Below are positions 7,587 through 59,346 of a stretch of 64,000 nucleotides of DNA, piece by piece. The position numbers and the translations under genes were made by a program. The stretch's first letter is position 1, and each line of letters begins with the position of its first letter. A model generated the notes under the pieces. That model was given only the letters and a program-made list of their open reading frames with translations. It was not told where the DNA came from and made no database searches. The stretch lies in contig JBGTQK010000002.1 of assembly GCA_041941365.1 (NCBI GenBank), positions 158,419 to 222,418 of the forward strand, in the 5' to 3' direction. Source of the DNA: Cellvibrionales bacterium. GTDB taxonomy: Bacteria > Pseudomonadota > Gammaproteobacteria > Pseudomonadales > UBA7434.

Positions 7587-9749
7587 ATGATAAGACAAAC
7601 AAGCCATTTTGCGAACAGTATAGAGACTGAACCGGATTCAAACTTCTCTACACTGAATACAAATACACACTCGGTTGTTTTTAATGATGAGCATGTAGAG
7701 CCATCTATTATTCTTGCTGTAGATCAGAACCTTTCATTTGTGGGTGAAAGCAATATTAATTTGTTAATCCCGAACTCAATTAATATATCGCTTTCAAAAG
7801 AATCCATATTTCATGAATTCATAAACGGCCTTATCCCGGAACAAAAAAGCAGCCTGATTGAAAATATTCAGCTGGTTATCAGAACCAAAACGCCTCAACA
7901 GTTAACCATAGTATCCAAATACATGAATGCTACGGAACGCTTTTCTATAAAAGTGTTGCCCGTTACTTTGGATAACCATGAAGCATCGAATTTTCTTCAG
8001 GACGATCCTGCAAACACACAAACTAAACAACACTGTCTTTTATTACTCGAAAGAATAAAAGAACTGCAATCAACGGCAAAATCTCACAATGATCTAGCAA
8101 AAAATTATTTGGAATTCACTTCAAATGCAATGGTAATCATTGATGCCACCAAAAATATAATCTTTGCGAATCAAGCATTCAAAAAAACATTGGGTATAGA
8201 CAGACTCACTTCAGGCAGTCTAGAAGATATTTTTTTATCCAATAACCTGGACAAAAAAACCAGTGATCATATATGGCACACATTATTTTACGAAAAACAC
8301 TGGAGTGGTGAGGTAAACCTGACATCAGGTTCAAAAAAGAATTGCTCTTTCTGGATTTCTGCTGAAGCTAAAGAAAATGAAAATGGATCAACGTACTATT
8401 ATTTTCTTTGCCATGAAATCGCATCAATAGGCAACATAAAAGAAAAGTTAGAACACAGCCTAACTCATGACCATACAACTGGACTCTTGAATCGATCTTC
8501 ATTTATTAAATCGCTTGATGAGCATATTAAAATTGCTAACGACAACAACAAAATTGGCGCTATTTTTTATATTGATATCGACTATTTTAAATTAATAAAT
8601 GAAGTTCATGGGGAAATCCTAGGTGATGTTGCTTTACTGAATGTTGCGACCCGTCTTAAAAAATCATTTAGAGAAGCAAGTCTGACATCAAGATTAAGCG
8701 GAGATTCATTTGCTATAGCCTTCAGTGATATTGGAGATTTTTCAAATGCCCACTTAATAGGAAAAAACATCCTAGAAAAAATCAAAACTCCTTTTCTAAT
8801 AGAAAATATCGAACTACAACTCAAATGCAGTATTGGCCTCGCTTCATTTAGCTCTGAGACCATCTCCAGTACAGAATTAATTAAACGTGCTGAAACTGCA
8901 ATGCATGCTGCAAAAGCGCTAGGGCGAAACAACCTGCAGTCATTTGATCATAGGCTCAGCCATGATCGATCAAAACAACTTAATATGCAAAATCATCTGA
9001 ATAATGCAATAAAAAACAAAGAATTCACTATGCATTACCAGCCCCAGTTTGATATGAAAACCAATAAACTGATTGGTGTAGAAGCTTTGATGCGTTGGTC
9101 TAACGAAGAACTGGGATCCGTTTCACCCGCTGTTTTTATACCTATCCTGGAATCGAGCGGTTTAATTTATGAAACCGGATTATGGATTATTGAAACAGTC
9201 TGTCGACAAATGAAAGTATGGAGAGAATTTTGCCAGATGGATTGCCCGGTCGGGGTTAATGTTTCTCGCTCACAATTAACAGAACCCAAATTTGCCAACT
9301 ATGTTATTGAAACACTCAATAAATTTGAAATTCCACCACACTTACTGGAAATTGAAATAACAGAAGAGGCCTGCACATCGAGTGAGAAAGTCATTCTGGA
9401 TACACTACAGAAGCTGCAAAGTCATGGCTGCAAAATTGCTATCGACGATTTTGGCACAGGATATTCCTCTCTCTCCAATCTACAAAACTTCCCTCTTGAT
9501 CGCTTAAAAATTGATAAAACCTTTATAGAAAAGGTGGATTATGATCAGAACTCTTACAACATAGCTTCGACTATTGTTAATTTAGGAAAAACGTTAAAGC
9601 TCGATATCATTGCTGAAGGTATTGAGACCAAGGAACAAATGAAACACTTACTTAAGATGGGCTGTAGAAATGCTCAAGGTTATTACTATAGCCGTCCTGT
9701 AAGTAATGTTGAATTTAATGAAAACTTTTTAAAGCCAAGAAAAAAATAA
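7587..9749 (+). CDS. PAS - degenerate GGDEF - EAL signalling protein (predicted c-di-GMP phosphodiesterase)
   Basis: 720 aa. The GGDEF position reads SGDSF (nt 8697..8711). EAL-domain motifs are intact: EALMRW, EIEITE, DDFGTGYSSL, EGIET, QGYYYSRP. A PAS-like region covers about aa 170-290. Confidence 0.85.
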   Translation: MIRQTSHFANSIETEPDSNFSTLNTNTHSVVFNDEHVEPSIILAVDQNLSFVGESNINLLIPNSINISLSKESIFHEFINGLIPEQKSSLIENIQLVIRTKTPQQLTIVSKYMNATERFSIKVLPVTLDNHEASNFLQDDPANTQTKQHCLLLLERIKELQSTAKSHNDLAKNYLEFTSNAMVIIDATKNIIFANQAFKKTLGIDRLTSGSLEDIFLSNNLDKKTSDHIWHTLFYEKHWSGEVNLTSGSKKNCSFWISAEAKENENGSTYYYFLCHEIASIGNIKEKLEHSLTHDHTTGLLNRSSFIKSLDEHIKIANDNNKIGAIFYIDIDYFKLINEVHGEILGDVALLNVATRLKKSFREASLTSRLSGDSFAIAFSDIGDFSNAHLIGKNILEKIKTPFLIENIELQLKCSIGLASFSSETISSTELIKRAETAMHAAKALGRNNLQSFDHRLSHDRSKQLNMQNHLNNAIKNKEFTMHYQPQFDMKTNKLIGVEALMRWSNEELGSVSPAVFIPILESSGLIYETGLWIIETVCRQMKVWREFCQMDCPVGVNVSRSQLTEPKFANYVIETLNKFEIPPHLLEIEITEEACTSSEKVILDTLQKLQSHGCKIAIDDFGTGYSSLSNLQNFPLDRLKIDKTFIEKVDYDQNSYNIASTIVNLGKTLKLDIIAEGIETKEQMKHLLKMGCRNAQGYYYSRPVSNVEFNENFLKPRKK

Positions 9750-9753: not shown

Positions 9754-11112
9754 TTAATCAATAATTGAAAGCACATCACCTAGTACTTTCACTCCTATCA
9801 CCTCGATACCTGATATTTTTTGTTTCGGTACATTAGCAACTGGCACAATGGCTTTGGTAAAACCATGTTTTGCCGCCTCATGAATACGCTCGGGGCCACT
9901 TGGCACTGGACGAATCTCACCCGACAACCCTACTTCACCAAATACGACAAGGTTTCTTGGCAGACTCCTGTTTTTAAAACTTGAGATTATTGCAAGTAAC
10001 AAGGCTAAATCAGCGCTGGTTTCTAACACTTTAACACCGCCGACAACGTTTGTAAAAACATCTGAAGCACCCACAGCCAAACCTCCATGACGGTGAAGTA
10101 CAGCAAGCAACATAGCCAATCGGTTGTTATCAATGCCAACTGTCACTCGCCTGGGATTTCCAATAGCTGCCTCATCAACAAGCGCCTGAATCTCTACCAA
10201 CATTGGTCTACTGCCTTCCCAAAGCACAACCACCACACTACCGGGAGACTCCTGTTCAGCTCTACTTAAAAATATCGCTGACGGGTTCCTCACTTCTTTT
10301 AACCCTTGCTCAGTCATTGCGAATACACCAAGCTCGTTGACTGCACCAAAACGATTTTTTTGGCCACGTAATGTTCTAAATCGACTATCTGAACTCCCTT
10401 CCAATAAGAGTGAACAGTCAATCATATGCTCCAGTACTTTGGGACCAGCCAGACTGCCGTCCTTGGTTACATGCCCTACCAGAAAAACTATGGTTTGAGT
10501 TTGCTTGGCAAAGCGCGTAATAAACGCAGCACACTCACGAACTTGTGAAACACTACCCGGCGCTGACTGTATAGCTTCACTGTGCATTACCTGAATGGAG
10601 TCAATAACTATTACCTTTGGCCTGAGCTTTTCTGATTGCATAATCAGGTTTTCAACAGAAGTTTCTGACATCATTTGCAGGTTACCTGTTGCTATTCCAA
10701 GCCGATGAGCTCGTAAAGCAACCTGCTGAAGTGACTCTTCCCCGGTCACATATAATGCAGTATTCTTCTCCGCCAACTTGCACATCACTTGCAATAACAA
10801 CGTGCTCTTTCCCGCTCCAGGGTGACCACCAATCAATATAGCCGAACCTGCAACCAAACCTCCGCCTAAAACTCGATCAAATTCAGCCATACCACTACTC
10901 AGGCGGGGCACGCTGGCTAAATCAATGTTGTCAAGCGTTTGAACCACAGCTGCACTGCCTGCGTAACCGACCTGGCGTGATTGAGTTGAACCTTTGACCA
11001 GTTTGACTTCCGAGAGTGTATTCCATGCACCACAATCGACACACTGCCCCTGCCATTTTGTATATTCTGACCCGCAATCGCTACAAACGTAGGCTGTTTT
11101 AGTTTTTGCCAT
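9754..11112 (-). CDS. radA: DNA repair protein RadA/Sms
   Basis: MAKTKTAYVCSDCGSEYTKWQGQCVDCGAWNT zinc finger, Walker A GHPGAGKST, KNRFG motif, and a Lon-like C-terminus. The start was moved to the ATG at 11112. The track ORF is extended upstream to 11196. Confidence 0.95.
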   Translation of the reverse strand: MAKTKTAYVCSDCGSEYTKWQGQCVDCGAWNTLSEVKLVKGSTQSRQVGYAGSAAVVQTLDNIDLASVPRLSSGMAEFDRVLGGGLVAGSAILIGGHPGAGKSTLLLQVMCKLAEKNTALYVTGEESLQQVALRAHRLGIATGNLQMMSETSVENLIMQSEKLRPKVIVIDSIQVMHSEAIQSAPGSVSQVRECAAFITRFAKQTQTIVFLVGHVTKDGSLAGPKVLEHMIDCSLLLEGSSDSRFRTLRGQKNRFGAVNELGVFAMTEQGLKEVRNPSAIFLSRAEQESPGSVVVVLWEGSRPMLVEIQALVDEAAIGNPRRVTVGIDNNRLAMLLAVLHRHGGLAVGASDVFTNVVGGVKVLETSADLALLLAIISSFKNRSLPRNLVVFGEVGLSGEIRPVPSGPERIHEAAKHGFTKAIVPVANVPKQKISGIEVIGVKVLGDVLSIID

Positions 11113-11257
11113 ATTGAATTTGTCTCTATTTCTATCTCTCACCCCACATGTTACATTGAGGGCTACTTTTACTGTTTCATCGCTAGCAAGAAGCACTTGG
11201 CATTAGTATACTGGTCGGCCGAGAAAAACAAATTGCAAAAGCACTATAAGTTTACCG

Positions 11258-12382
11258 ATGTCTGATTCCATATTTCCTGAACGACCTGTTATTTTTTCTC
11301 CTTCCCTCGCAGCTACTATTGGGTTGGAATCTGCAATTTTATTGCAACACTTACAACAACTGAATCAATTAAGCATACAGATTTCAGAAGCCAACCTGTC
11401 TGCTGAATTCCGATGGACTAGCATATCCCTTGGAGAATTAAGCTTACATTTACCATTCTGGTCACCTGCTGCGATACGCAGAACATTACAAAACCTGCAA
11501 GATCTTGGCATGCTGCTATTGAATTCTTTCCCTGAGCATAGCAATACGCCTTTTATTTATGCCATTAATCAAAAACAGAATACAGCAGCTAACACTATCA
11601 ATAAAACGCAGCCTCCTGCCCCCGAATCTACCTCTCAAACAAGCACAGAAAGCCTTGGAGCTCATCGCTTGCCCGACAACTGGAGACCTTCTTATGCAGT
11701 AGTGTCAAAGCTTGGTGATGCCGGTATCCCACCAAACTATACACAGGATTGTATCGAAGAATTCTGTCTTTACTGGAAAGAGCGTAATGAAGCTTCTCAT
11801 GCCTGGTCCAGCAAATTTTTTCAACATGTCACAAGACGATGGCAGCAAGAGCAACAGAAACAGGCAGAACAATCCAAACCAAAACTTCAAGCCCCGCTGC
11901 AAAACATTAATCAATGGCATCCACATAAAGACGCAATTGAAATTCTTGAACGCATGGGTATACACCAGAATTTTATTGATGATGCAGTACCCGAATTTAT
12001 TTTATATTGGCGAGAGAGAGGAGAGCCTCAAAATACCTGGAATTCAAAATTTGTTAATCATGTAAAAAACCAGTGGGCAAGATACACCAACACATTAAAA
12101 TATGACACTGAACCAAGGCAAATAACTGCCAACTGGCAACCCGACAGTGATGTTTTTGATGTATTAAGCATTGCCAACATTGATCTTAATTTTGCCCGCA
12201 TGCTCATCCCCGAATTTGTGTTGTATTGGAAAGACCGTCAGGAGGCGCATCATTCATGGAATACAAAATTCCTCCAGTACGTTAAAAAAGCCTGGTCACA
12301 AAGATGCACGCCCACAGAAAATAAAAAAACTCGGGAACGCTCGCTTCAGGAAGACCTAACAGATCGCTCATGGGCGCACTAA
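11258..12382 (+). CDS. protein with an unassigned N-terminal domain and three tandem DnaT-type (primosomal protein I C-terminal, ssDNA-binding) domains
   Basis: 374 aa. There are three ~54-aa repeats (aa 142-195, 220-273, 293-346) with the pattern W.P...(20 aa)..EF.LYW..R.E....W..KF...V...W. This resembles the E. coli DnaT C-terminus WQPDADFIRLAALWGV...[30 protein letters not shown]. Confidence 0.7.
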   Translation: MSDSIFPERPVIFSPSLAATIGLESAILLQHLQQLNQLSIQISEANLSAEFRWTSISLGELSLHLPFWSPAAIRRTLQNLQDLGMLLLNSFPEHSNTPFIYAINQKQNTAANTINKTQPPAPESTSQTSTESLGAHRLPDNWRPSYAVVSKLGDAGIPPNYTQDCIEEFCLYWKERNEASHAWSSKFFQHVTRRWQQEQQKQAEQSKPKLQAPLQNINQWHPHKDAIEILERMGIHQNFIDDAVPEFILYWRERGEPQNTWNSKFVNHVKNQWARYTNTLKYDTEPRQITANWQPDSDVFDVLSIANIDLNFARMLIPEFVLYWKDRQEAHHSWNTKFLQYVKKAWSQRCTPTENKKTRERSLQEDLTDRSWAH

Positions 12383-12397
12383 GGTGCTTTAATCATT

Positions 12398-13054
12398 ATG
12401 AAATCATCTGATGAACTGATAAGACTTGGAAAAGACGATATAGTTAAAAAAGATCAGCCTTTATCTAACCCCCATAATCCCAAACAAGAATCGAATGACT
12501 ACTCAAACCTGATTGACACGATCAATCAGGTTTTTTCCTTATTCAGAATTAATTACCACAATCAATTCTATGCTGCCTTGCCAGATACAGAAAACCTTAA
12601 TCAGGCAAAAAAGCTGTGGCTTAACGCGTTAAAAAATTACTCAAATGACACACTGTTAAAGACCACACAACAAATTATTGAAAGCTCTGAATACATGCCT
12701 GCTCTTAATCGATTCATAGAACTATGCGATGTTCTTGAATTCAATTTACCAACAATAAGAGATGCCTATAAAGAAGCTTGCCTTGCCGGCACACCTAAAG
12801 AAAATATTAACTGGAGCCATCCCATTGTTTACTACGCCGGAAAGAAAACCGGCTGGTTCAACTTAAGAAATCTCAACGAAAAACAATCTTTCCCTGCATT
12901 TACCGAACACTACGAAACGCTTAAAAAGCAAGTAAGAGCTGGTGAAACACTTTCCCAACCTGAAAAAATCCTGATCGAAAAACAGGAATCATCTCCACTA
13001 GATTTAGATGAAAGTAAAAAAAGGATAAAAGATCTTATCGCTTCGTTAGATTAA
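12398..13054 (+). CDS. phage lambda replication protein P-like protein (putative replicative-helicase loader)
   Basis: 218 aa, collinear by eye with lambda P. INQVFSLFRINY matches IINGVFSQLLATF. KKLWLNALKNYS...MPALNRFIELC matches RRQWVLAFRENG...LPSPGQFVAWC. NWSHPIVYYAGKKTGW matches PWKSNAHYWLVTNL. VRAGETLSQPEK matches INRGEAIPEPVK. Starts 15 nt after the DnaT-like gene. Confidence 0.55.
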   Translation: MKSSDELIRLGKDDIVKKDQPLSNPHNPKQESNDYSNLIDTINQVFSLFRINYHNQFYAALPDTENLNQAKKLWLNALKNYSNDTLLKTTQQIIESSEYMPALNRFIELCDVLEFNLPTIRDAYKEACLAGTPKENINWSHPIVYYAGKKTGWFNLRNLNEKQSFPAFTEHYETLKKQVRAGETLSQPEKILIEKQESSPLDLDESKKRIKDLIASLD

Positions 13055-13067
13055 AATGTCAATATAT

Positions 13068-13094
13068 AAGGCAGAAATATTTCCTTCTTTTTTT
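13068..13094 (+). terminator. weak candidate intrinsic terminator after the DnaT-like/P-like pair
   Basis: AT-rich imperfect hairpin aaggcagaaatatttcctt followed by cTTTTTTT. It sits in the convergent gap before the xdhC-like stop. Confidence 0.3.
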
Positions 13095-13109
13095 ATTTTA
13101 CAACAATAA

Positions 13110-14156
13110 CTATGCGGCCACTTCACCATTGGAGATCAGTGCTGCATAACTTAACGCCTGGCCTGTTCCTTTATAAATAATAGAGTGACATTCAGCAAGA
13201 ATAGAAAGAGCTATACTTTCCGGCAAATCACAACCAATATCAAAACCGGCTGGCCCTGAAAATACAGCATCGATATTTTCCGTTTCTACTTTTGCAAGTT
13301 CTACTATTTCTTCTTTACGATGAGCGGGGCCAAGTAACGCTAAATATCTTAAAGAACAATCGTGCAAGGCATTTAATGCTTGTGCATCTATCGTTTTATG
13401 GTGAGACATCAATATTGCTGCATCAACCTTATTGTTAACTGCATAAGTTTTTAATTCTTTTCTTTGTTCCAACTTAACGATTGTGTTGACGTGTGGAAAA
13501 AAATCTTTTCGAGCATAACCTGGCCTAGGATCCCATAATGACACTTGCCATCCCAACTGTGTTGCAAATTGAGTCATAGGAATGGCATCAACTCCTCCCC
13601 CAATGATCAGGATATGGGGAGGCGGTGTTAGACAAACATAAAGCCAAATAGTATCTTCTCTCTTTATTATCTTTGTTTTTTGCTTATCTTTAGTTACTAA
13701 AGTTTTGCTGACTTTTGTATTTATCGCTTTCGAAGAATCAACAAAATTTTGCATCCAGCAACAGGCATCGCCTTTCGATAACATTTTGTAAACTTTATCC
13801 AAAGCAAGATAATGCGTTAATTTATTCACAGGTAATAGCTTAAGGTAAACCACTCCACCACACCCTACACCCAATTGATAGGCAACATCATCCTCATCCT
13901 TATCATCATAACGCAGGCTAACGGGCTCTCCTGTTACCATGACTTTTTGTGCGTGATTTCTAACGTTTTTTTCCAGACATCCGCCACTTAAAACCCCAAA
14001 CTGATGACCAAGATCACTAAATAACATCATAGCTCCCGCTTTCCGATAACAAGAGCCCTCCGTTTTATAAATCACACCTAACACCCACTCCATTTCATCT
14101 TTAAGGGGATACCACTTTTGCAAGAGGTGCAGTATATGATTACCTGTTTGTAGCAT
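13110..14156 (-). CDS. XdhC/CoxI-family molybdenum-cofactor insertion accessory protein
   Basis: 348 aa. N-terminal XdhC_CoxI-like segment (TEGSCYRKAGAMMLF...GVLSGGCLE) and a Rossmann-like C-terminal half (ILIIGGGVDAIPMTQFATQLGWQV). Confidence 0.75.
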   Translation of the reverse strand: MLQTGNHILHLLQKWYPLKDEMEWVLGVIYKTEGSCYRKAGAMMLFSDLGHQFGVLSGGCLEKNVRNHAQKVMVTGEPVSLRYDDKDEDDVAYQLGVGCGGVVYLKLLPVNKLTHYLALDKVYKMLSKGDACCWMQNFVDSSKAINTKVSKTLVTKDKQKTKIIKREDTIWLYVCLTPPPHILIIGGGVDAIPMTQFATQLGWQVSLWDPRPGYARKDFFPHVNTIVKLEQRKELKTYAVNNKVDAAILMSHHKTIDAQALNALHDCSLRYLALLGPAHRKEEIVELAKVETENIDAVFSGPAGFDIGCDLPESIALSILAECHSIIYKGTGQALSYAALISNGEVAA

Positions 14157-24644: not shown

Positions 24645-24986
24645 TTATCTATAAAACTTTTCATAGATCAATTTTCTTAATTCATCACTTGCTTTTGACT
24701 TAAAGAAAATCTTTTTTATAACAGCATTATCTCGATCGGCAATGACCTCAATATTATCACCCATATCCAGATTTGCTGGTGTTCCCTGCTGGCCAGAACC
24801 CATATAAATCTTGATATCGTAAGCCATTCTATATTCTTTGGTTGGCTCTCCCATGCCTGCTGTTAGTATAGTATTGTTAGCAGTATCTACTTTAAGAATC
24901 ACTAACTCATACTCATCAAATGATGCATTTGCTTTAAAGCTTAAAAAAGATAGGATAAGCGCAAAAATAAACATCGTCTTTTTCAT
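24645..24986 (-). CDS. small secreted protein in the PilY2 position (hypothetical)
   Basis: MKKTMFIFALILSFLSFKANA|SF signal peptide. Lies between pilY1 and pilE. Assigned by position only. The start was moved to the ATG at 24986. Confidence 0.4.
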   Translation of the reverse strand: MKKTMFIFALILSFLSFKANASFDEYELVILKVDTANNTILTAGMGEPTKEYRMAYDIKIYMGSGQQGTPANLDMGDNIEVIADRDNAVIKKIFFKSKASDELRKLIYEKFYR

Positions 24987-25066
24987 AACATGCAATCTCA
25001 TTGGTTGTCTATTCATATCGTACCTTTTAATCTCTATCAATAAGTTTTACTCAAAATATCATTGAA

Positions 25067-40437: not shown

Positions 40438-41448
40438 TTATTCACTTATACAAGTATTACCATTAGGGATCAGGAAATCAGTTGTTGGATTCGCCATTAA
40501 CTCGCACCAGGTACTGGCATCAACGGCCACAGCACCGCCATTACTATCAACAGCTGTCAAATCAAATGTTTTAGAACCAGTCGGTTCAGCTGTAATACTA
40601 ACTTCTGAGCCTGTTGCAGTTGTTAATTCAATTTGCCCTTCTTTTGAAAAGGAGCCATCATCTGCCAAAATATCTTCGCCTGTATCTACATTAAAAATTG
40701 TGCCTAAAGCTCCACTATCTATTGTAAAACCTAACTCTAAAGAATTTTGCGGGGCGTTACCGTTATTGATGTCTACAGGTGTAGTATAGTTAATGCTATT
40801 CGTTGTAAATGTATAGGTAGATTGCGTTTGTTCAAATGGACTCAGGGTATCAAAATCAACTTGTAAATTACCTCCATCTATGATCAACCAATTAAGCTCA
40901 TCAGCATTAAAATTTATATTATAATTTATTGTCCCATTTACCGTGATACTACCATATTCAAGAAAACGAAAATTATTAAATGTAATCTCTCCAACATAGT
41001 TTGAAGTACTCGCATCCGTTCCTGTTTGAAAAGTAAAATCTATTGCCCCTGCAACAATAAAACGCTCAACATAACAATTAACAAAATTGACATTATAAAT
41101 CTTAATATCTATAGGGTTATTTATTTGCCCTATGGCAAGCGGATCATTACTTGAGACTTCCGTTAAACTTCCTATATCACAGGCAAATAATGGTAATGCT
41201 TCTGTACCTGTTTCTAGCTCATTTACTATAAATGCAATAAACTCAAAAATAAGCTCCGGGTACACAAAGGCTTCCTGCAATGCCCTGCCAACTGACAACC
41301 TGTCTTCAAGGCCATCTAACTCCGAAGAGCCACCACCCGATCCATCGCTATCAGAACCGGATACTGCATTCGGATCACCCGAACTACAGCTTATCAGACC
41401 TCCGATAAGCAACGCATAAAGAGCAATACACAGGAATCTTGATTTCAT
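40438..41448 (-). CDS. hypothetical lipoprotein (Asn/Thr-rich, beta-rich)
   Basis: MKSRFLCIALYALLIGGLISC|SSG lipobox, then a Gly/Ser/Asp linker. I recognise no family. The start was moved to the ATG at 41448. The gene ends 9 nt before the pyrB ATG. Confidence 0.6.
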   Translation of the reverse strand: MKSRFLCIALYALLIGGLISCSSGDPNAVSGSDSDGSGGGSSELDGLEDRLSVGRALQEAFVYPELIFEFIAFIVNELETGTEALPLFACDIGSLTEVSSNDPLAIGQINNPIDIKIYNVNFVNCYVERFIVAGAIDFTFQTGTDASTSNYVGEITFNNFRFLEYGSITVNGTINYNINFNADELNWLIIDGGNLQVDFDTLSPFEQTQSTYTFTTNSINYTTPVDINNGNAPQNSLELGFTIDSGALGTIFNVDTGEDILADDGSFSKEGQIELTTATGSEVSITAEPTGSKTFDLTAVDSNGGAVAVDASTWCELMANPTTDFLIPNGNTCISE

Positions 41449-41662
41449 AAAATGGCCATATTGGAAAACTTCATCAACTGGCAAGTCTAACTTTTTTTAG
41501 GCGCCTAGCCAATCTACTTTCTCTGCAAATCTCGCACAGTTAATGCTTTATTTGCAATAATTCCGGCTATATTTTCCTCTATTTAAGTTACTTTCAATAG
41601 TTGTACTTTAAATTTAAAATGCTCATTTATTTTGACATAAGTAAGAAGTTTGTATTTTTGCT

Positions 41663-46624: not shown

Positions 46625-49366
46625 TTAGCTCATTTTACCGTGACAGGCCTTATACTTTTTACCAGAACCGCAAGGACAAGGTTCGTTTCTGCCAATTTTA
46701 CGACCTGTTCTAACCATAGGCTCATTTGTATTTGAAGAAGCTGCTGTTTGTTCCTGGCTTTCTCCTGTAGCTAGGGAAGCCCCTGGATGACTGGCAGTAA
46801 TCTTCTGGCTTTCTTGCTCATCTCGTCTTTGTTTTTCTATTGCATCCGGATCATCTTGTGGTTTAATTTGCACTAAAGAAAGAAAACGAATAAATTCAAG
46901 TTTGACATTTTCTAACATCGATTGGAATAATTCAAAAGCTTCCCTTTTATATTCCTGCTTGGGATTTCTACCCGCATAACCTCTCAAACCAATACCTTGA
47001 CGCAATTGATCCATTGTAGCCAAATGCTCTTTCCACAATTGATCTAACACTTGCAACATGATTTGTTTTTCAAAACGTCTGGCAGCATCCCCCAAAGGCT
47101 CTATCTTTTCAAGATACTTTTCTTTTACAGCTTCAACGATTCTTTCTCGCAAGCTTTCTTCAACAAGACCTTTTTCAGCATCCAGCCATTTGGCAATGGG
47201 TAATTCTATATCGTAGTCACTCTTTAGCCCTTCTTCCAGACCAGGAATATCCCATTGTTCCTCCAGACTTTGTGGTGGTATAAATTGACTGATAGAGTCA
47301 TTCACAACATCACCGCGAATACTATCCATCATCTCTACGATATCTTCTGAAAGCAGAATGTCATCTCGTTGCTGGTAGATAATCTGGCGCTGATCATTTG
47401 ATACATCATCAAATTCAAGAAGCTGTTTACGAATATCAAAATTTCGCCCTTCAACTTTGCGCTGGGCTTTTTCTATTGCGTTAGACACCATTTTATGCTC
47501 TATCGCTTCCCCTCGCTCCATTCCTAACTTCTTCATAAAGTTGCGAACACCGTCTGAAGCAAATAAACGCATCAGGTTATCTTCCATAGAAAGATAGAAA
47601 CGTGTAACACCTGGATCACCCTGGCGACCTGCTCGCCCTCTCAACTGATTATCTATACGACGCGATTCGTGCCGCTCGGTTCCGAAGATATGCAAACCAC
47701 CGGCATCCAGCACTTGTTGCTGACGCAGCTTCCAAGCTTCTGTTCGCTCGGCAATTTCCTCCTCACTTGCATTTTCCAACTCAGCCAGCTCCGCTTCCAG
47801 ATTGCCACCTAACACTATATCAGTACCACGACCCGCCATATTAGTAGCAATAGTTACTGTACCTGGACGACCTGCCTGGGCAACTATTTTAGCTTCGCTC
47901 TGGTGAAACTTTGCATTTAGCACCTGGTGAGGGATTTTTTCTTTCTTTAAAAATTTCGATAAAATTTCAGAAGTTTCAATAGAAGCTGTACCCACCAGAA
48001 TTGGTGCGTTAGATTCAATCGCTTCACGTATATCTTTTACTACTGCTTCAAACTTCTCTTCTACTGAAAGATAAACCAGATCGTTAAGGTCTTGCCTTTC
48101 AATTTTCTTATTGGTAGGAATAACAACGACATCGAGATTATATATCTGATGAAATTCTGCCGCTTCTGTATCGGCAGTACCAGTCATACCGGAAAGCTTT
48201 TCATAAAGACGGAAATAATTTTGAAACGTTGTTGATGCCAACGTTTGACTCTCGGCCTGAATTTTTACGTTTTCTTTCGCTTCTAATGCCTGATGCAAGC
48301 CATCTGAAAGACGACGACCGGCCATTGTGCGCCCGGTATGCTCATCTATTAATACGATAGAGCCATCCTTGACAATATACTCCACATCTTTTGTGAAAAG
48401 ATGTTGTGCCCTTAATGCTGTACTTACATGGTGTAACAACCCAAGGTTTTTTGCGGAGTAAAGGCTATCCCCTTCTTCAAGAAGTTGATCTTCTATTAAC
48501 AAACTCTCAACAAACTGATGACCTGCTTCAGTTAACTCGACGGTTCGGCTTTTCTCATCAACAACAAAATCGCCATCCGGTTCTATTTTTTCTTCGAATT
48601 TCTTTTTCTCGGGAATATCGGTTGAACGCTTTAACTTTGGCACTATCGCATTAATTCGCTTGTACATCGCCGAACTATCAGCACTAGCCCCTGAAATAAT
48701 TAAAGGTGTACGCGCCTCATCAATCAGGATAGAGTCGACCTCATCAACAACTGCAAAGTTAAGCCCTCTCATCACCCTGTCTTCTAACGAAAAAGCTGTG
48801 TTATCCCTTAAATAATCAAAACCGAACTCATTATTTGTACCGTACGTTATGTCACATTGGTAAGCTGCTTTCTTGGATTCATAATCCTGTCCAGAAAAAA
48901 TAACGCCTACACTGAGACCCAAAAATTCATAAAGCGGTCTCATCCAGTTCGCGTCACGTTCAGCCAGATAATCATTTACCGTAACAACATGCACACCTTT
49001 GCCCGATAATGCATTCAGATAAACCGGTAATGTGGCTACCAGTGTTTTACCCTCTCCTGTTCGCATTTCTGCAATTTGCCCTTCATGTAAGGCTATACCA
49101 CCTATAAGCTGCACATCAAAGTGGCGCAAACCAAGAGCACGTGTACCGGCTTCTCTGACTGTCGCAAATGCTTCAGGCAATAAATCATTCAATGACTTTC
49201 CATCTGCCAATGCTTGTTTTAATACTGCTGTTTTTGTCTTTAATGCCTCATCATCCAATTGCTGGTACTCTTCAGCCAGCTTATTGATTTTATCAACCAG
49301 CTTACCCATTCGCTTAAGCTGGCGGTCATTACGAGTCCCAAAAACTGATTTAAAAATATTAACCAT
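46625..49366 (-). CDS. secA: preprotein translocase ATPase SecA
   Basis: Starts [20 protein letters not shown]. Walker A MRTGEGKT and C-terminal zinc motif [14 protein letters not shown]. The start was moved to the ATG at 49366. Confidence 0.98.
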
Positions 49367-49560
49367 AGTAATCTTGATGTAATTGTATTTTGTTATGCCT
49401 GGGGTAGGCTGGAAACCTATGCAAACGACTGCATGCAAATGATTTTATTATCCTGCCACCAGAAAGGGGGCAAAGCATACCATGCTGGCAAAATATCAGA
49501 TAGAAAACAGGTGGGGATTATTGATGAATAATCAAGTCCTGACGCATTAAAAAAACACGC

Positions 49561-50526
49561 TTATAGACTTGAACGATAGATGTAACGCTCAGGATTAATA
49601 TGTTTTCCGTTTTTTAACACTTCAAAATGCACATGAGGGCCAGTTGATCGACCTGTACTACCAATTAAGGCAACTGCTTGCCCTTTCTTAACCGCATCAC
49701 CTACCTCAACCAGATTCCTTTTATTATGGCCGTATCGAGTCACGATTCCACCGCCATGGCTGATCTCAACCATATTACCGTATCCATAGCGCTTTTCAGA
49801 GGCTGTCACAACACCTCCTCCTACAGCGATGACTTCACCACCATCTTTACTCGCAAAATCGACACCATTATGCCAGGCATCCTTTTTGGTAAAAGGGTCC
49901 TTTCTCATACCGAACGCCGATGACATCCAACCTTTTTTAACAGGCCTTCCTGTCACCAATCCTTCTGACCTCACCTGCTTGGCCAACATCTGGCGATCAA
50001 GCATAGACATTTGATATTCTCTATCACTCAACAAATAATCAAATTCTTCAAGCAAATTATAAAGATTGACTGAATCACTGGAGAGGATGTTTTTCTCGGC
50101 TGACGACTTGTCATCTTTCTTGGCATCAACTGTATCAACCCCTATTTCAGGACCACCGACAGGTAAACGACTAAAATCAAACTCTCCATTATCCAGCTTG
50201 GCTGCTCGGGCGACTTTTTCACTGAGTGCATCCAGCTTGATCAAACGCGCTTTTAAACTCACTACTTGCTGAGTTAAAGCTTCCACTTCGGCATCGATTT
50301 TAAACTTGGCTTCGCTATATTCTGCTTTATTAGCGTGTAACTGATCGTGGAAAGACTTTTCACTGTTATATTTTCCAACCACACCACCCAAATAGGCAGA
50401 CACGCTCATACAACCAATAAAAGCCAATAGCAATAGACTTGAGATAACTAACGAGCGCTTGCCGAACAACTCAATGACTCGTGAAGTATGGTTTGAATTC
50501 CTTAATAAAATTACTTTCATTGACAA
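49561..50526 (-). CDS. M23-family murein endopeptidase with an N-terminal TM segment and coiled coil
   Basis: 321 aa. HNGVDFAS and GPHVHFEV metal-binding motifs. Confidence 0.85.
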   Translation of the reverse strand: MSMKVILLRNSNHTSRVIELFGKRSLVISSLLLLAFIGCMSVSAYLGGVVGKYNSEKSFHDQLHANKAEYSEAKFKIDAEVEALTQQVVSLKARLIKLDALSEKVARAAKLDNGEFDFSRLPVGGPEIGVDTVDAKKDDKSSAEKNILSSDSVNLYNLLEEFDYLLSDREYQMSMLDRQMLAKQVRSEGLVTGRPVKKGWMSSAFGMRKDPFTKKDAWHNGVDFASKDGGEVIAVGGGVVTASEKRYGYGNMVEISHGGGIVTRYGHNKRNLVEVGDAVKKGQAVALIGSTGRSTGPHVHFEVLKNGKHINPERYIYRSSL

Positions 50527-50720
50527 TTATTTTCTATTAATTCGAGTTTGCCGCTAAAAACAGAAAAGCCTGTTGAAGCTTTTTTGACTATCCTATTAGT
50601 ACAGCAGATGAACGAGCGTTCTGCGAATAGCCAACAACAATTAGCTGAATATATTTTCTCATAGACTCTACATTGTGAACGGCATCACTAAATGAATGGC
50701 ACCTGACAAATACAGTCAAA

Positions 50721-50738
50721 CCGCTTTGGGAAAAGCGG
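50721..50738 (-). terminator. weak candidate terminator after lpxC
   Basis: The minus strand has ccgcttt-tccc-aaagcgg followed by TTTgactgtaTTT, about 50 nt after the lpxC stop. Confidence 0.3.
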
Positions 50739-50787
50739 CATCATATCAATGAGTGGAATGAGGAAGCAAGGGAGTCATTAAAAGTGT

Positions 50788-51696
50788 TTACGCACCGACA
50801 GGAACTGCGTAAGAAATAGGCGCTTCCTGCTCTTTATCAAAAATCACTGTTTCCCATGCATCTGGTTGAGCAATCAGCTCTCTTAACAGACGGTTATTCA
50901 GTGCGTGGCCAGATTTATAAGCATTGAAGTTACCAATAAGACTCCGACCCAATAAATAAAGATCACCAATGGCGTCGAGTACTTTATGGCGAACAAACTC
51001 ATCTTCGTATCGCAAACCATCTTCATTAAGCACCCGATAATCATCAATAACTATCGCATTATCCATACTGCCACCTAACGCAAGACCTTGTGAGCGCAGG
51101 AATTCAAAGTCTTTCATAAAACCAAATGTTCGCGCCCGACTGACTTCACGAACAAAAGAAGTGGAGCCAAAATCGACTTCTGCTGAAGCCGTGCGACCCT
51201 TAAATGCCGGGTGATCAAAATCAATGGTAAAACCCACCTTAAAACCAGCATGCGGTGTAAACGTAGCTCGCTTATCGCCTTCAGTTACAGTAACCTCGCG
51301 CTTTATACGAATAAATTTCTTCGGTGCTTCTTGTTCTTCAATACCAGCTGACTGCAATAAAAATACAAATGGACCCGCACTGCCATCCATAATTGGCACT
51401 TCTGCCGCATTTATATCGACATAAATATTATCGATACCTAAACCCGCAAGGGCCGATAACAAATGCTCTACAGTAGATACACTTGAGCCATCATAAGAAA
51501 GCGTGGTAGAAAGTTGAGTGTCTGAAACGTTTTCAGCTAATGCAGGAATGGATACAACAGGATCGAGGTCAGTACGACGAAATATAATACCAGTATCAAC
51601 GGGCGCAGGACGTAAAGTAATAAATACTTTTTTCCCGGTATGTAAACCAACACCCGTAGCACGGATGCTATTTCGAAGAGTACGTTGTTTGATCAT
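50788..51696 (-). CDS. lpxC: UDP-3-O-acyl-N-acetylglucosamine deacetylase
   Basis: [23 protein letters not shown] as in E. coli LpxC. The start was moved to the ATG at 51696. Confidence 0.96.
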
Positions 51697-52154
51697 TTGC
51701 AACTCCAATTTGTGTGCTTAGCGCTTTTTGCTTTACGAATCCGGTTCAAGTCCATAAACCTAAATACTTTTCCTTATGTTTTCACAAAGCACTTCTTTGA
51801 TCCCATACTGAGAGTAACAAAGATTGTGATAATCGGGATTATATTTAAGTTATCCCTCGTTATCCTTCCAGATCATCAGCAAGGCTGCTGATGGTACTGC
51901 CAATGCGCAATTAAATAAAAGCGTATGATCAAATATAAGCGATAAATCTCCTCTTCATTTGTGTCATTTGTCAGTCTTATGACTAATTTGCCATTCAGCT
52001 TGGCAGTTTGTCACAAGGAAATACCCAACAATTTTACAATGACACTTTTTTGTATGATTAGCCAACAAATCTGGCAGTGTGCCCAGTAATTTAAACCCTG
52101 GAGACATAGAATAAAACCTGGTTTCAATATAGGTGACATATGTCGCCAATTTTT

Positions 52155-54677: not shown

Positions 54678-55598
54678 TTATCTATTTTCAGCATTAAATT
54701 CAAATGGTGATACATTCTCGGTAACACCCTGGTGATGCACAGCATCAATGGCTATTTTTTTGGTGGAATCCTCAAGAAGACCCTGATCACGCCAGGAAAT
54801 AGCAAAACCACTGTTATAACGAAGATCAGCTACTGCCATTTGCTGCCAATCCTCTATCAAGCCATTATCTATTTGCTCAATTAGCAGCACTAAACGATCT
54901 TCAATATTTTCAGTGCCCAACTCAATACGAACCTTGTTTTGCAAAGTCAGCCAGATATCCTGGCCTGTCGTTGTTCCTATTTCTGTAATTTTCAATTGAT
55001 GCGACTTAAGAAGCTTTTGTAGTCGGTTAAATATTTCAACCCACTCAAGTAGTTTTTTAGTTTCACTTACTTTTAACAACTTGTTGCGAAACATCGGCAA
55101 ACTTGAAAAAGCTTCAGTTTCTAACAGATCAATTATTTCTCCTGATTCTGTAAGCAATTGGTATTCATTTAGCCTCGCTACCGGCACATTTTCGTCTATC
55201 GTTACCACTAGACTGTTTGGCCATTGCCGTCTTACAGAAGCACTACTTACCCATTGATGCGCTTCTACTTTATTTCTTATCTCACCAAGTTCTAACGACC
55301 AATATCTTTCACTTTGATAATCAACTAATAGCTGCTCTAGATCTTTTTTATTTAATCCACCAGCTAATAGACTGATATTTTCACCCACCACTGGTTGAAT
55401 GCCATAAATTTCAATTGCTTCAAGTTTTTGCGAGCCAATATACTTAACACCGAGAAAAATCCCGTATCCTGCAATTAATAAAAAGAACAATGGTGTAATA
55501 TTTCTAACAAAGAAACGAACTGGTTTTAAAATACCATTTTCATCCAGTTGAAAACGGGAGCTCCTGTTACTTGCACCTTTTCTTGTTCTTATAATCAT
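54678..55598 (-). CDS. ftsQ: cell division protein FtsQ
   Basis: 306 aa. Single TM segment, then a POTRA-like region ([15 protein letters not shown]). Its ATG overlaps the murC stop (ATGA). Confidence 0.85.
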
Positions 55599-57019
55599 TT
55601 TGATGCCGCCATAGTTTTTACAAAATCAGATGCCAATCGTCCAATATCGCCAGCCCCCTGGAAAATGACTATATCTTCTTCCTTTATCAAATCAGTCAAG
55701 ACCTTATGCAGCTCGACCTTATCTTCAATAAAGACCGGATCTACTTTTTCATTTCGACGAATACTCCTTGCCAGACTCCTTCCATCTGCACCTTGTATTC
55801 TTTCTTCTCCGGCAGAGTAAACCTCTAACAAGACAAGTGTATCAACTTCACTTAAAACTCTTACAAACTCATCGTATAAGTCATTTGTTCTGGAAAACCG
55901 ATGCGGCTGAAACACCATAAGAAGACGCCGTGAGGGCCAGGCTTCCCTTGCAGCAGCAACTGTAGCGGCAATTTCAGTTGGATGGTGTCCATAGTCATCG
56001 AGCAAGCCAAAAGCTTTATTCTGGATCAAGAGATTATCTGAAAATTGAAAACGCCTTCCTACACCAGTAAAACGTTCTAACGATTTTAGAATAACTCCTA
56101 TTTCTACACCTTCTTCTCTTGCAACGGCAAATGCTGCGGTTGCATTCAAAGCATTATGCTTACCAGGCATATTGAGTGTTACATACACTGGGTTTTCCTG
56201 CCCTGAAAACTGAATATGAAACTCACTTCTCAAACCAGTAGTAGAGTAATTTAAAACCCTGTAGTCACACTTTTCTGAAAACCCATAAGTTTTTACAGGA
56301 CGATGAAAATCATCTAACAATGAAAGTATGTTTTCATCATCACCACAGACTACTAGCAACCCATAGAATGGAAGGTTATGTGCAAACTTTACAAATGTAG
56401 CCTTTAATTTATCGAACTCTCCTTCATATGTACTCATATGATCTGCTTCGATATTTGTAATAACGGAAATCATTGGCTGCAAATGCAAAAAGGAAGCATC
56501 GCTTTCATCAGCCTCGGCAATCAAATAATCACCCGATCCCAGCTGTGCATTAGCATTTGCACTATTAAGCAAACCACCAATAACAAAAGTTGGTGCTACA
56601 CCTGCCTCACCAAAAATTGATGCCAACAAACTTGTTGTGGTTGTTTTTCCATGTGTTCCAGCTACAGCTATACCAAATCGATAACGCATCAGCTCTGACA
56701 ACATTTCTGCTCTAGGCACTATCGGTATACCTTTTTGTTTAGCCGCAATAACTTCTTGATTCGTATTATTGATTGCAGAAGAAATAACAACCACATCAAC
56801 GTTTTCAATATTTTTTTCATCATGAGAACAAAAAATACTTGCACCCAACGAGCTTAACCTCTCAGTGACATGGCTAGAAGCCAAATCAGACCCACTTACT
56901 TGATAGTTCTGATTTATAAGCACTTCAGCTATGCCACACATTCCGGCACCACCAATACCTACAAAATGGATCTTCTGAATCCTTCTCATAGATTGATTTA
57001 ATGGCTTGTTAACCGGCAT
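55595..57019 (-). CDS. murC: UDP-N-acetylmuramate--L-alanine ligase
   Basis: [18 protein letters not shown] and GTHGKTTTT. The ATG at 57019 has GGAG 7 nt upstream. The track ORF extends to 57046. Confidence 0.93.
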
Positions 57020-58109
57020 AGACATACTCCGCGCAACAGTCCGCAATAATCTTTGTCGCTTCTACTTTCGCCCATGATCGAGACTGCGCGCTTTTTTCGC
57101 TTAACTTTTCCCGATCCGATAACAGCTCAACAAGCTTATCTGTTAGTACTTCTATATTTAGTTGAGATTCCTCTATACATTCAGCAGCCCCAACAGCAAC
57201 CAAATGCTGAGCGTTGTGGTATTGGTGATTGTCAATAGCGTAAGGATAAGGAATAAATACTGCTGGCAATCCAACAGCTGAAATCTCACTAACAGTTAAT
57301 GCGCCTGCTCGAGCTATTATTAAATCTGCTTTTGCATAAATACTCGCTATGTCATCGATAAAATCTATCACCTCACAATGAAATTGATCATTTGTTATCT
57401 CGGCATAAACCTTTTTGACACTATTAACATCTCTCTCGCCCGTCTGATGCAAGACAAACAACCCTGAAGAATAAACATCTTTATTGATTAATTTGATAGC
57501 TGCTGGAACAACATCATTCAATGCTTTCGCTCCGAGACTTCCTCCAACCACTAACAAATTAAATGTATGCTTATCTCCTTTTGCCTCTTTCTTTATTTCC
57601 ATAAATTCAGGTCTTAAAGGGTTGCCCGATTCAACAACATTGCTTTTTCCAGCAAAAACACCAGGAAAAGCGACAAATATTTTTTTAGCAAATCTTGCCA
57701 ATACCTTGTTTGCTGTTCCTGCTATTGCATTTTGCTCTTGCAAAATGAGAGGCTTTCTACTAATTACAGCAGCTATACCCGCTGCTACTGAAACAAAGCC
57801 CCCCATTCCTAACACACACACAATATTTTTTCTTTTAATTAAACGAACTGTCGTTGCAGTTGCAGAAAAGAGCAAAAATACTGATCGTATCTTCTGAAGT
57901 AAACTTGCGCCTCTTACGCCTTTTACTTTAATCACGTTAAATGGAATTTTATTTTCAGGTACCACTTTTGACTCTAAGCCTTTATGAGTACCAATCCATT
58001 CAACATCAATACTATTTTTCCTTAATTCATTTGCAACAGCCAAGCCTGGAAAAACGTGCCCACCTGTTCCACCCGCAGCTATTAACACTTTATTTGTCAG
58101 ATCAGGCAT
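57009..58109 (-). CDS. murG: undecaprenyldiphospho-muramoylpentapeptide beta-N-acetylglucosaminyltransferase
   Basis: 366 aa. [16 protein letters not shown]. Confidence 0.95.
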
Positions 58110-59346
58110 ACACTTTACCTCTTGAACGAGGTAGCTTTTCTTTCCTTTTAACTTCTTTCTTAATCGTATTACCTTTACGTGTTTGTTTTCTCTTTAATAA
58201 AGCTTTACTTTCCACATCCACTCTAAAAATAATTGCTATAAACATACTTGTTACCAGTAAACTACTGCCACCATAGCTAATCAAAGGTAACGTTAAACCT
58301 TTTGTGGGCAACAAACCTATATTGACACCAACATTAATAAACATTTGTAGCGCTAAAATAATCGTTGCACCGTAAATTACATATGCTCCAAAAAGCATCC
58401 CTGCGGTTTCTGCATTTCGAGCTATTTGAATAAATTTATAAATCATAAAAGTGTAAACTGACAATACGGCTATACAGCCTACGAAACCTAACTCCTCAGC
58501 CAATATGGCAAAGACAAAATCTGTATGCGCTTCTGGCAGAAAAAATAACTTTTGGACACTATTACCTAATCCAAGACCGAACCATTCTCCTCTACCCAAA
58601 GCGATAAGGGATTGCACCAGTTGGTAGCTTTTACCACTCTCATGCTCCCATGGATTTAAATATGCAATCAATCTATCCATACGATACTCAACATCAACCA
58701 CCATAAAATAGATTGCAACAAAACTCATGACGATCAATAAAACAAATTGAGTTAACCTCACTCCCCCTAAAAAAAGCATACCTAACGCGGCACTTAACAA
58801 AACGACAACTGAACCAAAATCCGGCTGCAAAATTAAAAGCACAATCATTAAAATAACAACACACATTGGATTGATAAAACCCGCTATATGACTTCTAACT
58901 TTTTCTTGCTGTCTCACAAGATAGCCAGCTAAATACATTACCAGGCCAAATTTGGCAAACTCAGAAGTTTGTATTGTTAACGACCCTAATGCTACCCAGC
59001 GTGATGCTCCTTTTACTTCCTTACCAATACCTGGAATGAGCACCATCATTAAACTCAGAAAACCGGCTATCAATAAAAAGACAGAAAATTTTTCCCAAAA
59101 AGAAATTGGAAACTGGAATACTACTATTGCAGCAGTTAATGCAATGCAGATATAAAAAATGTGCCTGTAAAAATAAAACAATGGCTGACCATAAAAATGA
59201 CCGGCATAATCGAGCGATGCCGAAGTAATCATCACTAAACCTAATGCTGCAATAGATGCAACTGCAAGCAAAAGAAAATAATCCAATCCTTCATTAATAT
59301 TCTGGTTTGCGAACTGAGTTGATTTAGCCTGGGTTCTCATCCGCAA
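58102..59346 (-). CDS. ftsW: peptidoglycan glycosyltransferase FtsW (SEDS family)
   Basis: 414 aa. Polytopic, with LPEAHTDFVFA and LPLISYGGSS motifs. Confidence 0.93.
   Translation of the reverse strand: MRMRTQAKSTQFANQNINEGLDYFLLLAVASIAALGLVMITSASLDYAGHFYGQPLFYFYRHIFYICIALTAAIVVFQFPISFWEKFSVFLLIAGFLSLMMVLIPGIGKEVKGASRWVALGSLTIQTSEFAKFGLVMYLAGYLVRQQEKVRSHIAGFINPMCVVILMIVLLILQPDFGSVVVLLSAALGMLFLGGVRLTQFVLLIVMSFVAIYFMVVDVEYRMDRLIAYLNPWEHESGKSYQLVQSLIALGRGEWFGLGLGNSVQKLFFLPEAHTDFVFAILAEELGFVGCIAVLSVYTFMIYKFIQIARNAETAGMLFGAYVIYGATIILALQMFINVGVNIGLLPTKGLTLPLISYGGSSLLVTSMFIAIIFRVDVESKALLKRKQTRKGNTIKKEVKRKEKLPRSRGKVYA

Follow-up and report, generated by a model that had tools for sequence, protein, structure and literature searches.

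A chromosomal DopC–DopE pair with a proposed lambda-P-type helicase loader beside radA, on a 64-kb stretch with an empty dciA site

Two adjacent genes in a 64,000-nt stretch of DNA from a Cellvibrionales bacterium (contig JBGTQK010000002.1; the whole stretch is called the window here) are a new, divergent copy of the published DopC–DopE pair, and the second product, DopE, belongs to the lambda P family of helicase loaders. We put at roughly 0.7 the probability that chromosomal DopC–DopE consists of lambda O-P-type phage genes which became fixed in an ancestor of the Cellvibrionales-type gammaproteobacteria, have been inherited vertically beside radA and serve in helicase loading. Replicative helicase loading is essential, and the loaders were long thought to be DnaC or DnaI, later mostly DciA. 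A third loading solution is proposed for DopE by Brézellec et al. (2017; Genome Biol Evol 9:1561, PMC5509034), who sought a gene shared by all Cellvibrionales and by the Oceanospirillales in which dciA and dnaC/dnaI are both missing, and found a lambda-P-like gene, named dopE, as the single gene tracking the loss of dciA and dnaC/I. In the same study dopC always lay directly upstream of dopE and combined an N-terminal helix-turn-helix (HTH) with a DnaT C-terminal motif; the pair lay outside any prophage, at loci free of iterons and DnaA boxes, and the GC-skew minimum fell at gidA-dnaA in 13 DopCE genomes (PMC5509034). The window leaves this picture unchanged and adds a divergent member from a lineage of low guanine-plus-cytosine (GC) content (∼0.38–0.40) that is not in the species-representative genome set, the closest non-self identities being 54% for DopE and 55% for DopC. 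A sequence-only reading of the window had suggested a domesticated loading or restart module rather than a prophage remnant; this idea is supported by synteny in 68 of 80 related loci, by co-divergence with RadA and by the empty dciA site, although it was already in print as DopC/DopE. New relative to the text of the 2017 paper are the number of tandem DnaT units, the D[RT]SWA tail of DopC and the viral contigs that pair DnaT-domain with P-like genes. The remaining interest lies in a system that lacks experimental work to date, and for which hypotheses on the units, the tail and the viral pairs are now sharpened.

The direct evidence concerns homology, fold, architecture, synteny, co-divergence with radA, the vacant dciA slot and the lack of any prophage or origin signal. 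Both reading frames were confirmed as same-strand neighbours, with the 15-nt spacer (12383–12397) given by the earlier reading, and profile searches returned significant Pfam matches for both products. Phage_lambda_P (PF06992) covers residues 42–187 of DopE over profile positions 3–161 of 162 (E = 4.2e-10, 40.1 bits, cutoff 26), and PHROG 109 ('P-like helicase loader') matches at E = 9e-22; no NCBIfam model matches DopC or DopE. A 20-sequence profile of DopE relatives was aligned by hhalign to lambda P over 181 columns, DopE 36–218 to P 34–227 with the C-terminal helix included (89%, E = 2.4e-6, 15% identity). The AlphaFold model of DopE, built on the alignment of relatives with a predicted local distance difference test (pLDDT) score of 87, has three significant matches among solved structures, all of them lambda P chains on E. 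coli DnaB in PDB 9oa1 (Foldseek E = 5e-5 to 4e-4, probability 1.00). The collinearity with lambda P first seen by eye thus holds at the level of profile and fold.

The lambda P chain is made up of four parts: a lasso at the N-terminus (1–29), domain II (∼30–119), domain III (∼120–192) and a lasso at the C-terminus (193–233) (PMC12661323). The same order is predicted in the DopE model, with a helix at 4–12, helical domains at 28–115 and 120–180, an extended linker and a helix at 203–217, the residues directly before the last helix (181–202) being non-helical. The N-terminal segment (M.D..EL...) is conserved in part of the family. Within the domain at 28–115 lies the family motif INQVF..FR(I/L)NYHNQ, and this domain is weakly like SPP1 G39P (Pfam E = 6e-4; PDB 1no1, E = 0.07); the domain at 120–180, whose lambda P counterpart sits on the C-terminal tier of DnaB (PMC12661323), contains the invariant motif WSHP.VY.AG. 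The role of the C-terminal lasso, with which we compare the last helix, is taken from the same lambda P study (PMC12661323). DopE matches no AAA+ (IstB-like) or P-loop family, its Pfam matches being Phage_lambda_P and the weak one to G39P. Tblastn of DopE against cultured phages retrieved P-like genes at 22–36% identity, mostly from Pseudomonas phages, whereas the same search with DopC retrieved nothing.

DopC carries the three DnaT C-terminal domains that the sequence-only reading had recognized: Pfam DnaT (PF17948) matches three stretches (E = 6.1e-68, 224.9 bits, cutoff 25), the strongest being that in unit 2 (residues 218–279 on profile positions 5–67 of 69), and hhalign pairs unit 1 with residues 83–153 of E. 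coli DnaT, its C-terminal domain that binds single-stranded DNA (ssDNA; 81%, E = 1.2e-5). Calling the gene simply a DnaT-domain gene, however, missed the first ∼108 residues, which form a winged-helix initiator/DnaD-like domain. In the model this domain has helices at 15–21, 23–38, 58–64 and 70–83 and strands at 53–57, 86–88 and 98–103 (pLDDT 82–95), and its best Foldseek matches are winged-helix regulators and the N-domains of staphylococcal plasmid RepA (4pql, 4pt7, 5kbj), at probability 0.96–0.99 with weak E-values of 0.2–0.7. It also matches the PHROG initiator and DnaD-like families 11233, 6493 and 428 (E = 7e-9 to 9e-6), and the DopC matches to PHROG entries annotated 'replication initiation protein' and 'DnaD-like helicase loader' take in both the first ∼120 residues and the DnaT units. 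Brézellec et al. (2017) assigned HTH_36 to DopC by HHpred; this was not reproduced by hmmscan of the N-domain here, which gave no Pfam HTH_36 and no Phage_rep_O match. Because the DopC model is a string of small domains, the whole-chain fold search gave weak E-values (≥0.18 at best; predicted template modelling score 0.33), and we used it solely for calling the N-terminus a winged helix. A sequence search of DopC against the PDB did not find DnaT and gave chance matches to thymidylate synthase. The linker after the winged helix is poor in acidic residues and unconserved. Since the N-terminus is a winged-helix replication-initiator domain and hhalign aligned nothing of DopC to the N-terminal domain of DnaT, gene 1 is a replication-initiator-like protein carrying DnaT-type units and not a DnaT orthologue.

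The architecture and length range of DopC are common to all 120 homologues listed, 115 of which have three DnaT units and five, from the Teredinibacter group, four; many residues are invariant across the homologues of both proteins. In the mature E. coli preprimosome, about four DnaT C-terminal domains make up a filament that surrounds the lagging-strand ssDNA, with two nucleotides per domain–domain interface and the first domain docked on PriA (PMC13377028). By analogy, we infer that the three or four covalently joined units of DopC look like a ready-made short DnaT filament, a possible covalent counterpart of the filament in these 2026 preprimosome structures.

The pair is resident in the chromosome beside radA, is not part of a prophage and has most likely been inherited vertically. 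We examined the 80 best species-level loci from among 576 relatives (cited below, with the viral loci, by L-numbers), all 80 of which belong to Cellvibrionales-type genomes. A divergent radA lies within 800 nt of dopC in 60 of these and 2.2–4.9 kb away in eight more, so that the pair adjoins radA in 68 of 80 and is not strain-variable, a point on which the sequence-only reading had called for a check; four of the remaining loci show another context and eight are too short to tell. The larger distances reflect insertions between radA and dopC of ∼2.3 kb (L008, L040, L042, L057, L075, L077) or 4.5–4.9 kb (L025, L059), mostly in genomes labelled Porticoccaceae or Porticoccus. The window RadA is 62–76% identical to the RadA beside dopC in the 68 loci, and the matrices of pairwise DopC and DopE distances correlate with the RadA matrix (Mantel rho 0.79 and 0.77, respectively, p = 0.001; 61 loci plus the window), which is the pattern predicted by vertical inheritance. 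The DopE relatives come from Halieaceae, Porticoccaceae, Cellvibrionaceae, Simiduia, Ca. Reddybacter and metagenome-assembled genomes (MAGs) labelled 'Pseudomonadales', and the DopC relatives are full-length, Teredinibacter turnerae (P0194) included. By all three proteins the nearest relatives are L002 and L003, two unclassified MAGs with RadA identities of 73–76%, which alone share the GGDEF-EAL gene beyond radA (41–47% identity), a feature of use in placing the organism. To the right of dopE, the xdhC, cmoB and cmoA genes of the window recur in none of the 80 loci, which sets the limit of conserved synteny precisely at the stop codon of dopE. The GC content of the locus resembles that of its flanks, with no anomaly.

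The window also contains the site at which the ancestral loader gene would be expected. Beta- and gammaproteobacteria have their dciA gene, PA4405 in P. aeruginosa, between secA and lpxC (Brézellec et al. 2016, PMC5109545). Between secA (46625–49438, − strand) and lpxC (50788–51708, − strand) the window has an M23 peptidase gene (49561–50526), with Peptidase_M23 as its sole Pfam match, and a 261-nt gap (50527–50787) without dciA or any open reading frame (ORF) above 43 aa. Thus the 64 kb of DNA that hold the genes of the proposed replacement also contain the customary site of the ancestral loader, and the loader is missing there.

Comparison with known systems places the window pair with the DopC–DopE published for Cellvibrionales and part of the Oceanospirillales, for example those of Saccharophagus degradans, Cellvibrio japonicus (CJA_3124) and T. 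turnerae. These share a P-family gene directly after a gene for an HTH plus DnaT-type protein and a chromosomal, non-prophage setting without iterons or DnaA boxes, and the relatives of the window are exactly this clade; the window copy differs in its divergence, its low-GC lineage and a right flank shared with 0/80 loci. With lambda O-P the pair has in common the order of initiator and then loader, the collinearity of DopE with P in the same four-part layout, and a DopC tail (L-T-D-R-S-W-A) that resembles the end of lambda O (L-T-N-T-D-W-I-Y-G-V-D-L) and of O-family proteins. In contrast to O, DopC lacks the Phage_rep_O N-domain and the O C-domain and carries three DnaT units instead, and the locus is free of iterons and prophage. 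In particular, DopC has no match to PF04492 (Phage_rep_O), whereas the O-like protein of Pseudomonas phage vB_PaeP_Tr60_Ab31 (Ab31) matches at 4e-19 in the same run.

Outside bacterial chromosomes, the closest match in architecture is found in two viral contigs. L095 (UViG 2693429862_000001) has an HTH_36 plus DnaT-domain gene, and L106 (UViG 2523231066_000003) a DnaT-domain gene, in each case immediately upstream of a Phage_lambda_P gene whose product is 30–35% identical to DopE. They differ from the window pair in having one DnaT unit, no D[RT]SWA tail (L095 ends DFDDDQWIDGVDEVL) and phage-gene surroundings. Judged by these sequences, a viral pair of the L095/L106 type is likely the kind of ancestor from which dopC-dopE arose, and the DnaT domain was probably brought along by the phage initiator and multiplied later; that it took the place of O features once the pair was domesticated is less probable. 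Since viral contigs already pair DnaT-bearing initiators with P-like loaders, the pair descends from a phage initiator–loader (O-P type) module.

This origin also bears on the resemblance to E. coli dnaT-dnaC. As the earlier reading pointed out, a P-type protein occupies the dnaC position: in both arrangements a DnaT-domain gene is directly followed by a phage-derived loader gene, and the DnaT C-domain is homologous to each DopC unit. DnaC, however, bears no relation to lambda P, being an AAA+ (IstB-like) ATPase, whereas DopE has no ATPase domain. DnaT has one C-domain, an oligomerizing N-domain and an acidic PriB-binding linker, whereas in DopC the N-terminus is a winged helix, the linker is not acidic and three units are joined covalently. 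The resemblance to dnaT-dnaC is one of parallel arrangement and not a sign of common operon ancestry. B. subtilis DnaD combines a winged-helix N-domain with a helical, ssDNA-binding C-terminal part and, as an adaptor, connects DnaA or PriA to the loader–helicase complex. DnaD/DnaI is a functional analogue and no more. The DopC N-terminus matches DnaD-like PHROG families; DopC has, however, no significant sequence or profile match to DnaD domains, and the partner loader is of another family. A further virus-derived loader in place of dciA is VdhL1/VdhL2 of Vibrionaceae, a non-homologous protein that replaced dciA together with a co-transferred gene weakly like lambda O (PMC11087808). It is of another family, with marginal similarity to PF06992, and is scattered and repeatedly transferred, in contrast to the clade-wide, vertical DopCE.

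The short tail of DopC is shared well beyond the window. All 120 DopC homologues listed have D[RT]SWA among their last 25 residues, and the motif occurs in 77 of the 80 genome loci. It also ends a 154-aa protein in L091 that is homologous to lambda O's C-terminal domain (46% to O 191–269, E = 1e-21) and whose gene lies just upstream of the phage P-like gene nearest to DopE, and a tail of this type ends the O-like initiator of Ab31 (L081 3105–3914; ...NDTSWAVGLEQDLF), again encoded just upstream of a P-like gene. Lambda O itself (L083 187–1086) terminates in ...LDLTNTDWIYGVDL, its last ∼12 residues being LTNTDWIYGVDL. An acidic, tryptophan-containing C-terminal peptide is common to several initiators encoded directly before P-type loaders. 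LTDRSWA-type tails are further found on small proteins with two DnaT units in viral contigs (L086 2862–3659, L087 5974–6618, L089 5995–6531, also L088 and L090), whose genes adjoin Mu-type GemA and Mor (L087, L089) or NinG and DNA methylases (L086); these sequences may point to Mu-like phages with a primosome adaptor of their own. To our knowledge, the contact between lambda O and P is structurally unmapped to date, and the short C-terminal motif may be such an initiator-to-loader contact. From the sequence comparisons we hypothesize that proteins on the initiator side use the tail peptide to hold on to the loader or to DnaB.

The functional steps of the account, namely DnaB binding, loading at oriC, PriA-dependent restart and a role for the tail, are inferred from these comparisons. 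By analogy with its relative, DopE most likely works as lambda P does: it would bind the host DnaB hexamer, open the ring and so stand in for DciA or DnaC in this lineage. DopC would be the adaptor that carries DopE–DnaB to ssDNA, with delivery to abandoned forks, probably together with PriA, and possibly also to an oriC opened by DnaA. Its three tandem units would wrap ssDNA as a pre-assembled, single-chain filament of DnaT C-domains, one of them perhaps docking on PriA at abandoned forks, while the winged helix would bind duplex DNA or a partner protein and the LTDRSWA tail would be a docking peptide for DopE or DnaB. A more ambitious version, which we hold tentatively and consider well short of even odds, sees DopC as a pre-assembled DnaT filament joined to a DnaD-like winged helix that would serve both DnaA initiation and PriA restart, with an O-derived L-T-D-x-S-W-A tail capturing the P-type loader with DnaB; the module would replace DciA, and perhaps DnaT/PriB, throughout the order, and the peptide would be the lambda O-P contact.

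Several results weigh against this account. The identity of DopE to lambda P is about 15%, and a search of PDB sequences with the DopE profile did not retrieve lambda P at E ≤ 1, its best match being SPP1 G39P at E = 0.07; the relationship is thus remote but consistent, and Pfam, hhalign and fold comparison were needed to establish it. On the initiator side, hhalign detected no similarity between the DopC family and lambda O, and the PHROG families matched by the DopC N-domain do not overlap with those of lambda O; with Phage_rep_O and HTH_36 unmatched as well, we rejected membership of DopC in the lambda O family. DopC also lacks the N-domain and the acidic PriB-binding linker of DnaT, so that an E. 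coli-like PriA/PriB route is not assured. Tblastn of the L086–L090 stretches found no DopE-like gene beside the two-unit tail proteins, and the tail partner could accordingly be DnaB or something else; moreover, the motif is not in several phage initiators that adjoin P-like genes (L093, L096, L103, L106), which is why the docking function is worded above as a hypothesis. The absence of dciA, dnaC and dnaI applies to the 64-kb window and the usual dciA site. In the literature we found no experimental test of DopC or DopE, later papers merely citing the 2017 prediction.

Among other explanations, the strongest, which we nevertheless regard as unlikely, confines the pair to replication restart: DopC–DopE would put DnaB back on abandoned forks, whether or not PriA takes part, and oriC would use another loader or none. 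Mu replication relies on the host restart primosome, and proteins with two DnaT units occur in Mu-like viral contigs; the most conserved part of DopC is, moreover, the DnaT-type domain, with its known role in the PriA/PriB/DnaT preprimosome. A restart function was among the options raised in the 2017 paper (PMC5509034). A general loader is nonetheless favoured by the empty dciA slot together with a clade devoid of dciA and dnaC/I in which dopE is the sole gene tracking the loss (PMC5509034), by the action of lambda P at an origin and by the fact that no alternative loader is known in these genomes. A considerably more doubtful proposal is that the pair is kept as an anti-phage device, the resident P-type loader and its adaptor holding DnaB so tightly that phages cannot capture the helicase. 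The 2017 authors suggested this as an added advantage (PMC5509034), and lambda P out-competes DnaC for DnaB (PMC5509034, PMC12661323). The locus, however, bears none of the usual marks of defence genes, although no search of the PADLOC library was made: it lies outside any variable island and keeps strict synteny and co-divergence with radA across families. The ancestral loader is, moreover, missing from its usual site.

Two further readings are close to excluded in view of the synteny, the conservation and the lack of origin signals. That the pair is the inert leftover of a lambdoid prophage replication module beside radA might be argued from the phage relatives of both genes and from viral contigs with the same gene order, but we think it very improbable: the genes are intact and full-length, stand in the same place in 68/80 species-level genomes of several families, retain many invariant residues and have distances that correlate with those of RadA, no other phage gene, att-like repeat or tRNA gene was seen, and the GC content is that of the flanks. 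Least probable of all is a second chromosomal origin, at which DopC would still be an initiator acting on an ori-lambda-like site inside or beside dopC. The DopC N-domain does resemble phage and plasmid initiators, and the lambda origin lies inside gene O. Against this, positions 11100–13100 contain no iteron family, their direct repeats being weak two-copy matches, and no DnaA box (TTATCCACA) at ≤1 mismatch, the whole-window count of which is at chance level; GC skew keeps its negative sign throughout the locus (size −0.04 to −0.23), and the published skew minimum is at gidA-dnaA in 13 genomes (PMC5509034). We therefore retain helicase loading by a vertically inherited, phage-derived pair as the preferred reading of the locus described in Table 1.

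Table 1. Coordinates of dopC, dopE, their predicted domains and associated features in the window.
Feature	Position	Strand	Remarks and basis
dopC, whole gene	11258..12382	+	374 aa; winged helix, linker, three DnaT units, tail
DopC N-terminal winged helix-turn-helix domain	11258..11581	+	aa 1-108; AlphaFold, Foldseek, PHROG
DopC linker	11582..11647	+	aa 109-130; predicted disordered, pLDDT < 50; variable length and sequence in alignment
DnaT-type three-helix unit 1	11669..11866	+	aa 138-203; Pfam DnaT; model helices 146-154, 159-176, 183-206
DnaT-type unit 2	11903..12106	+	aa 216-283; Pfam DnaT; model helices 224-232, 237-254, 258-282
DnaT-type unit 3	12125..12316	+	aa 290-353; Pfam DnaT; model helices 297-305, 310-327, 334-350
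DopC C-terminal tail	12317..12379	+	motif LTDRSWA at 12356-12376; homologue alignment; floppy in model
dopE, whole gene	12398..13054	+	218 aa; lambda-P-type helicase loader
DopE short N-terminal helix	12407..12433	+	aa 4-12; putative counterpart of lambda P domain I (N-terminal lasso); low-confidence prediction
DopE helical domain	12479..12742	+	aa 28-115; counterpart of lambda P domain II; pLDDT 91-97; aligned to P 34-111
DopE helical domain	12755..12937	+	aa 120-180; counterpart of lambda P domain III; model, fold match, hhalign
DopE C-terminal helix	13004..13048	+	counterpart of lambda P C-terminal lasso; model helix 203-217; aligned to P ∼212-227
radA	9754..11112	-	divergent core neighbour anchoring the radA-dopC-dopE block; Pfam zinc ribbon, KaiC/RecA-like ATPase, Lon_C/ChlI
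radA/dopC divergent intergenic region	11113..11257	.	145 nt, not 61; presumed promoters
Empty ancestral dciA slot	49439..50787	.	between secA and lpxC

The junction of the two genes varies within the family. Of 78 related loci, 35 have a DopE match that starts within the dopC match, with an overlap of ∼83 nt in the loci inspected (L001, L004, L006, L017, L018 and others; about 10001–10083), so that the N-terminal 'lasso' segment of DopE is encoded there in another frame over the DopC tail, whereas the window genes are separate. About 107 nt into dopE, at 12505–12533, lies an inverted repeat with perfect 12-bp arms, a loop of 5 nt and a tail rich in T (AAACCTGATTGA cacga TCAATCAGGTTT TTTCC), which the scan classes as terminator-like and which overlies the conserved codons for LIDTINQVF. 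The palindrome is not consistently kept in 79 homologous segments, with a similar one in some (e.g. L057); given this and its position over conserved codons, we did not retain it as a functional element and regard it as probably a coding by-product, though it may have a role as an attenuator.

The start of radA was set at ATG 11112, as residue 29 of the listed ORF (GTG 11196) is the first of the conserved RadA N-terminus MAKTKTAYVC. A simple sigma-70 scan of the radA-dopC spacer showed no consensus promoter, and the counts from the promoter and terminator scans are within chance. The core-gene flanks described in the sequence-only reading are as it stated. To the left of dopC are genes for riboflavin synthase (ribE-type), ribD, nrdR, glyA, an outer-membrane beta-barrel protein, an ABC-F ATPase, a GGDEF-EAL protein and radA; to the right of dopE follow the xdhC-like gene, cmoB, cmoA, pxpBCA-type genes, a Cu-oxidase_4 family gene, nadE, pilSR and a minor-pilin/pilY1 cluster, and further right ispH, an FKBP-type isomerase gene, lspA, ileS, ribF, murJ, a carbamoyltransferase-family gene, coaE, a mutT-type gene and argJ, after which come secA, the M23 peptidase gene, lpxC, ftsZ and ftsA. 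The Pfam scan covered 46 large ORFs of the window (44 besides the pair), the last ∼10 kb (54678–63925) lying outside it. All Pfam matches among the 44 other ORFs are to housekeeping families; no phage, integrase, DciA (PF05258) or DnaC/IstB domain was found in the flanking genes scanned, and, as the earlier reading had it, the scanned part shows no integrase, repressor, structural gene or att-like repeat. The window contains no tRNA gene.

Some observations on the neighbours are recorded for completeness. The GGDEF-EAL signalling protein beyond radA has 720 aa (7587–9749) and was read from the sequence, outside the Pfam scan. The XdhC/CoxI-family gene (13110–14156) stands alone between dopE and cmoB, with no genes for xanthine or CO dehydrogenase subunits nearby. 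Two ORFs of the window are without a Pfam match: one of 131 aa (24645–25040) ends the pilY1/minor-pilin cluster, and one of 348 aa (40438–41484) adjoins the aspartate/ornithine carbamoyltransferase-family gene.

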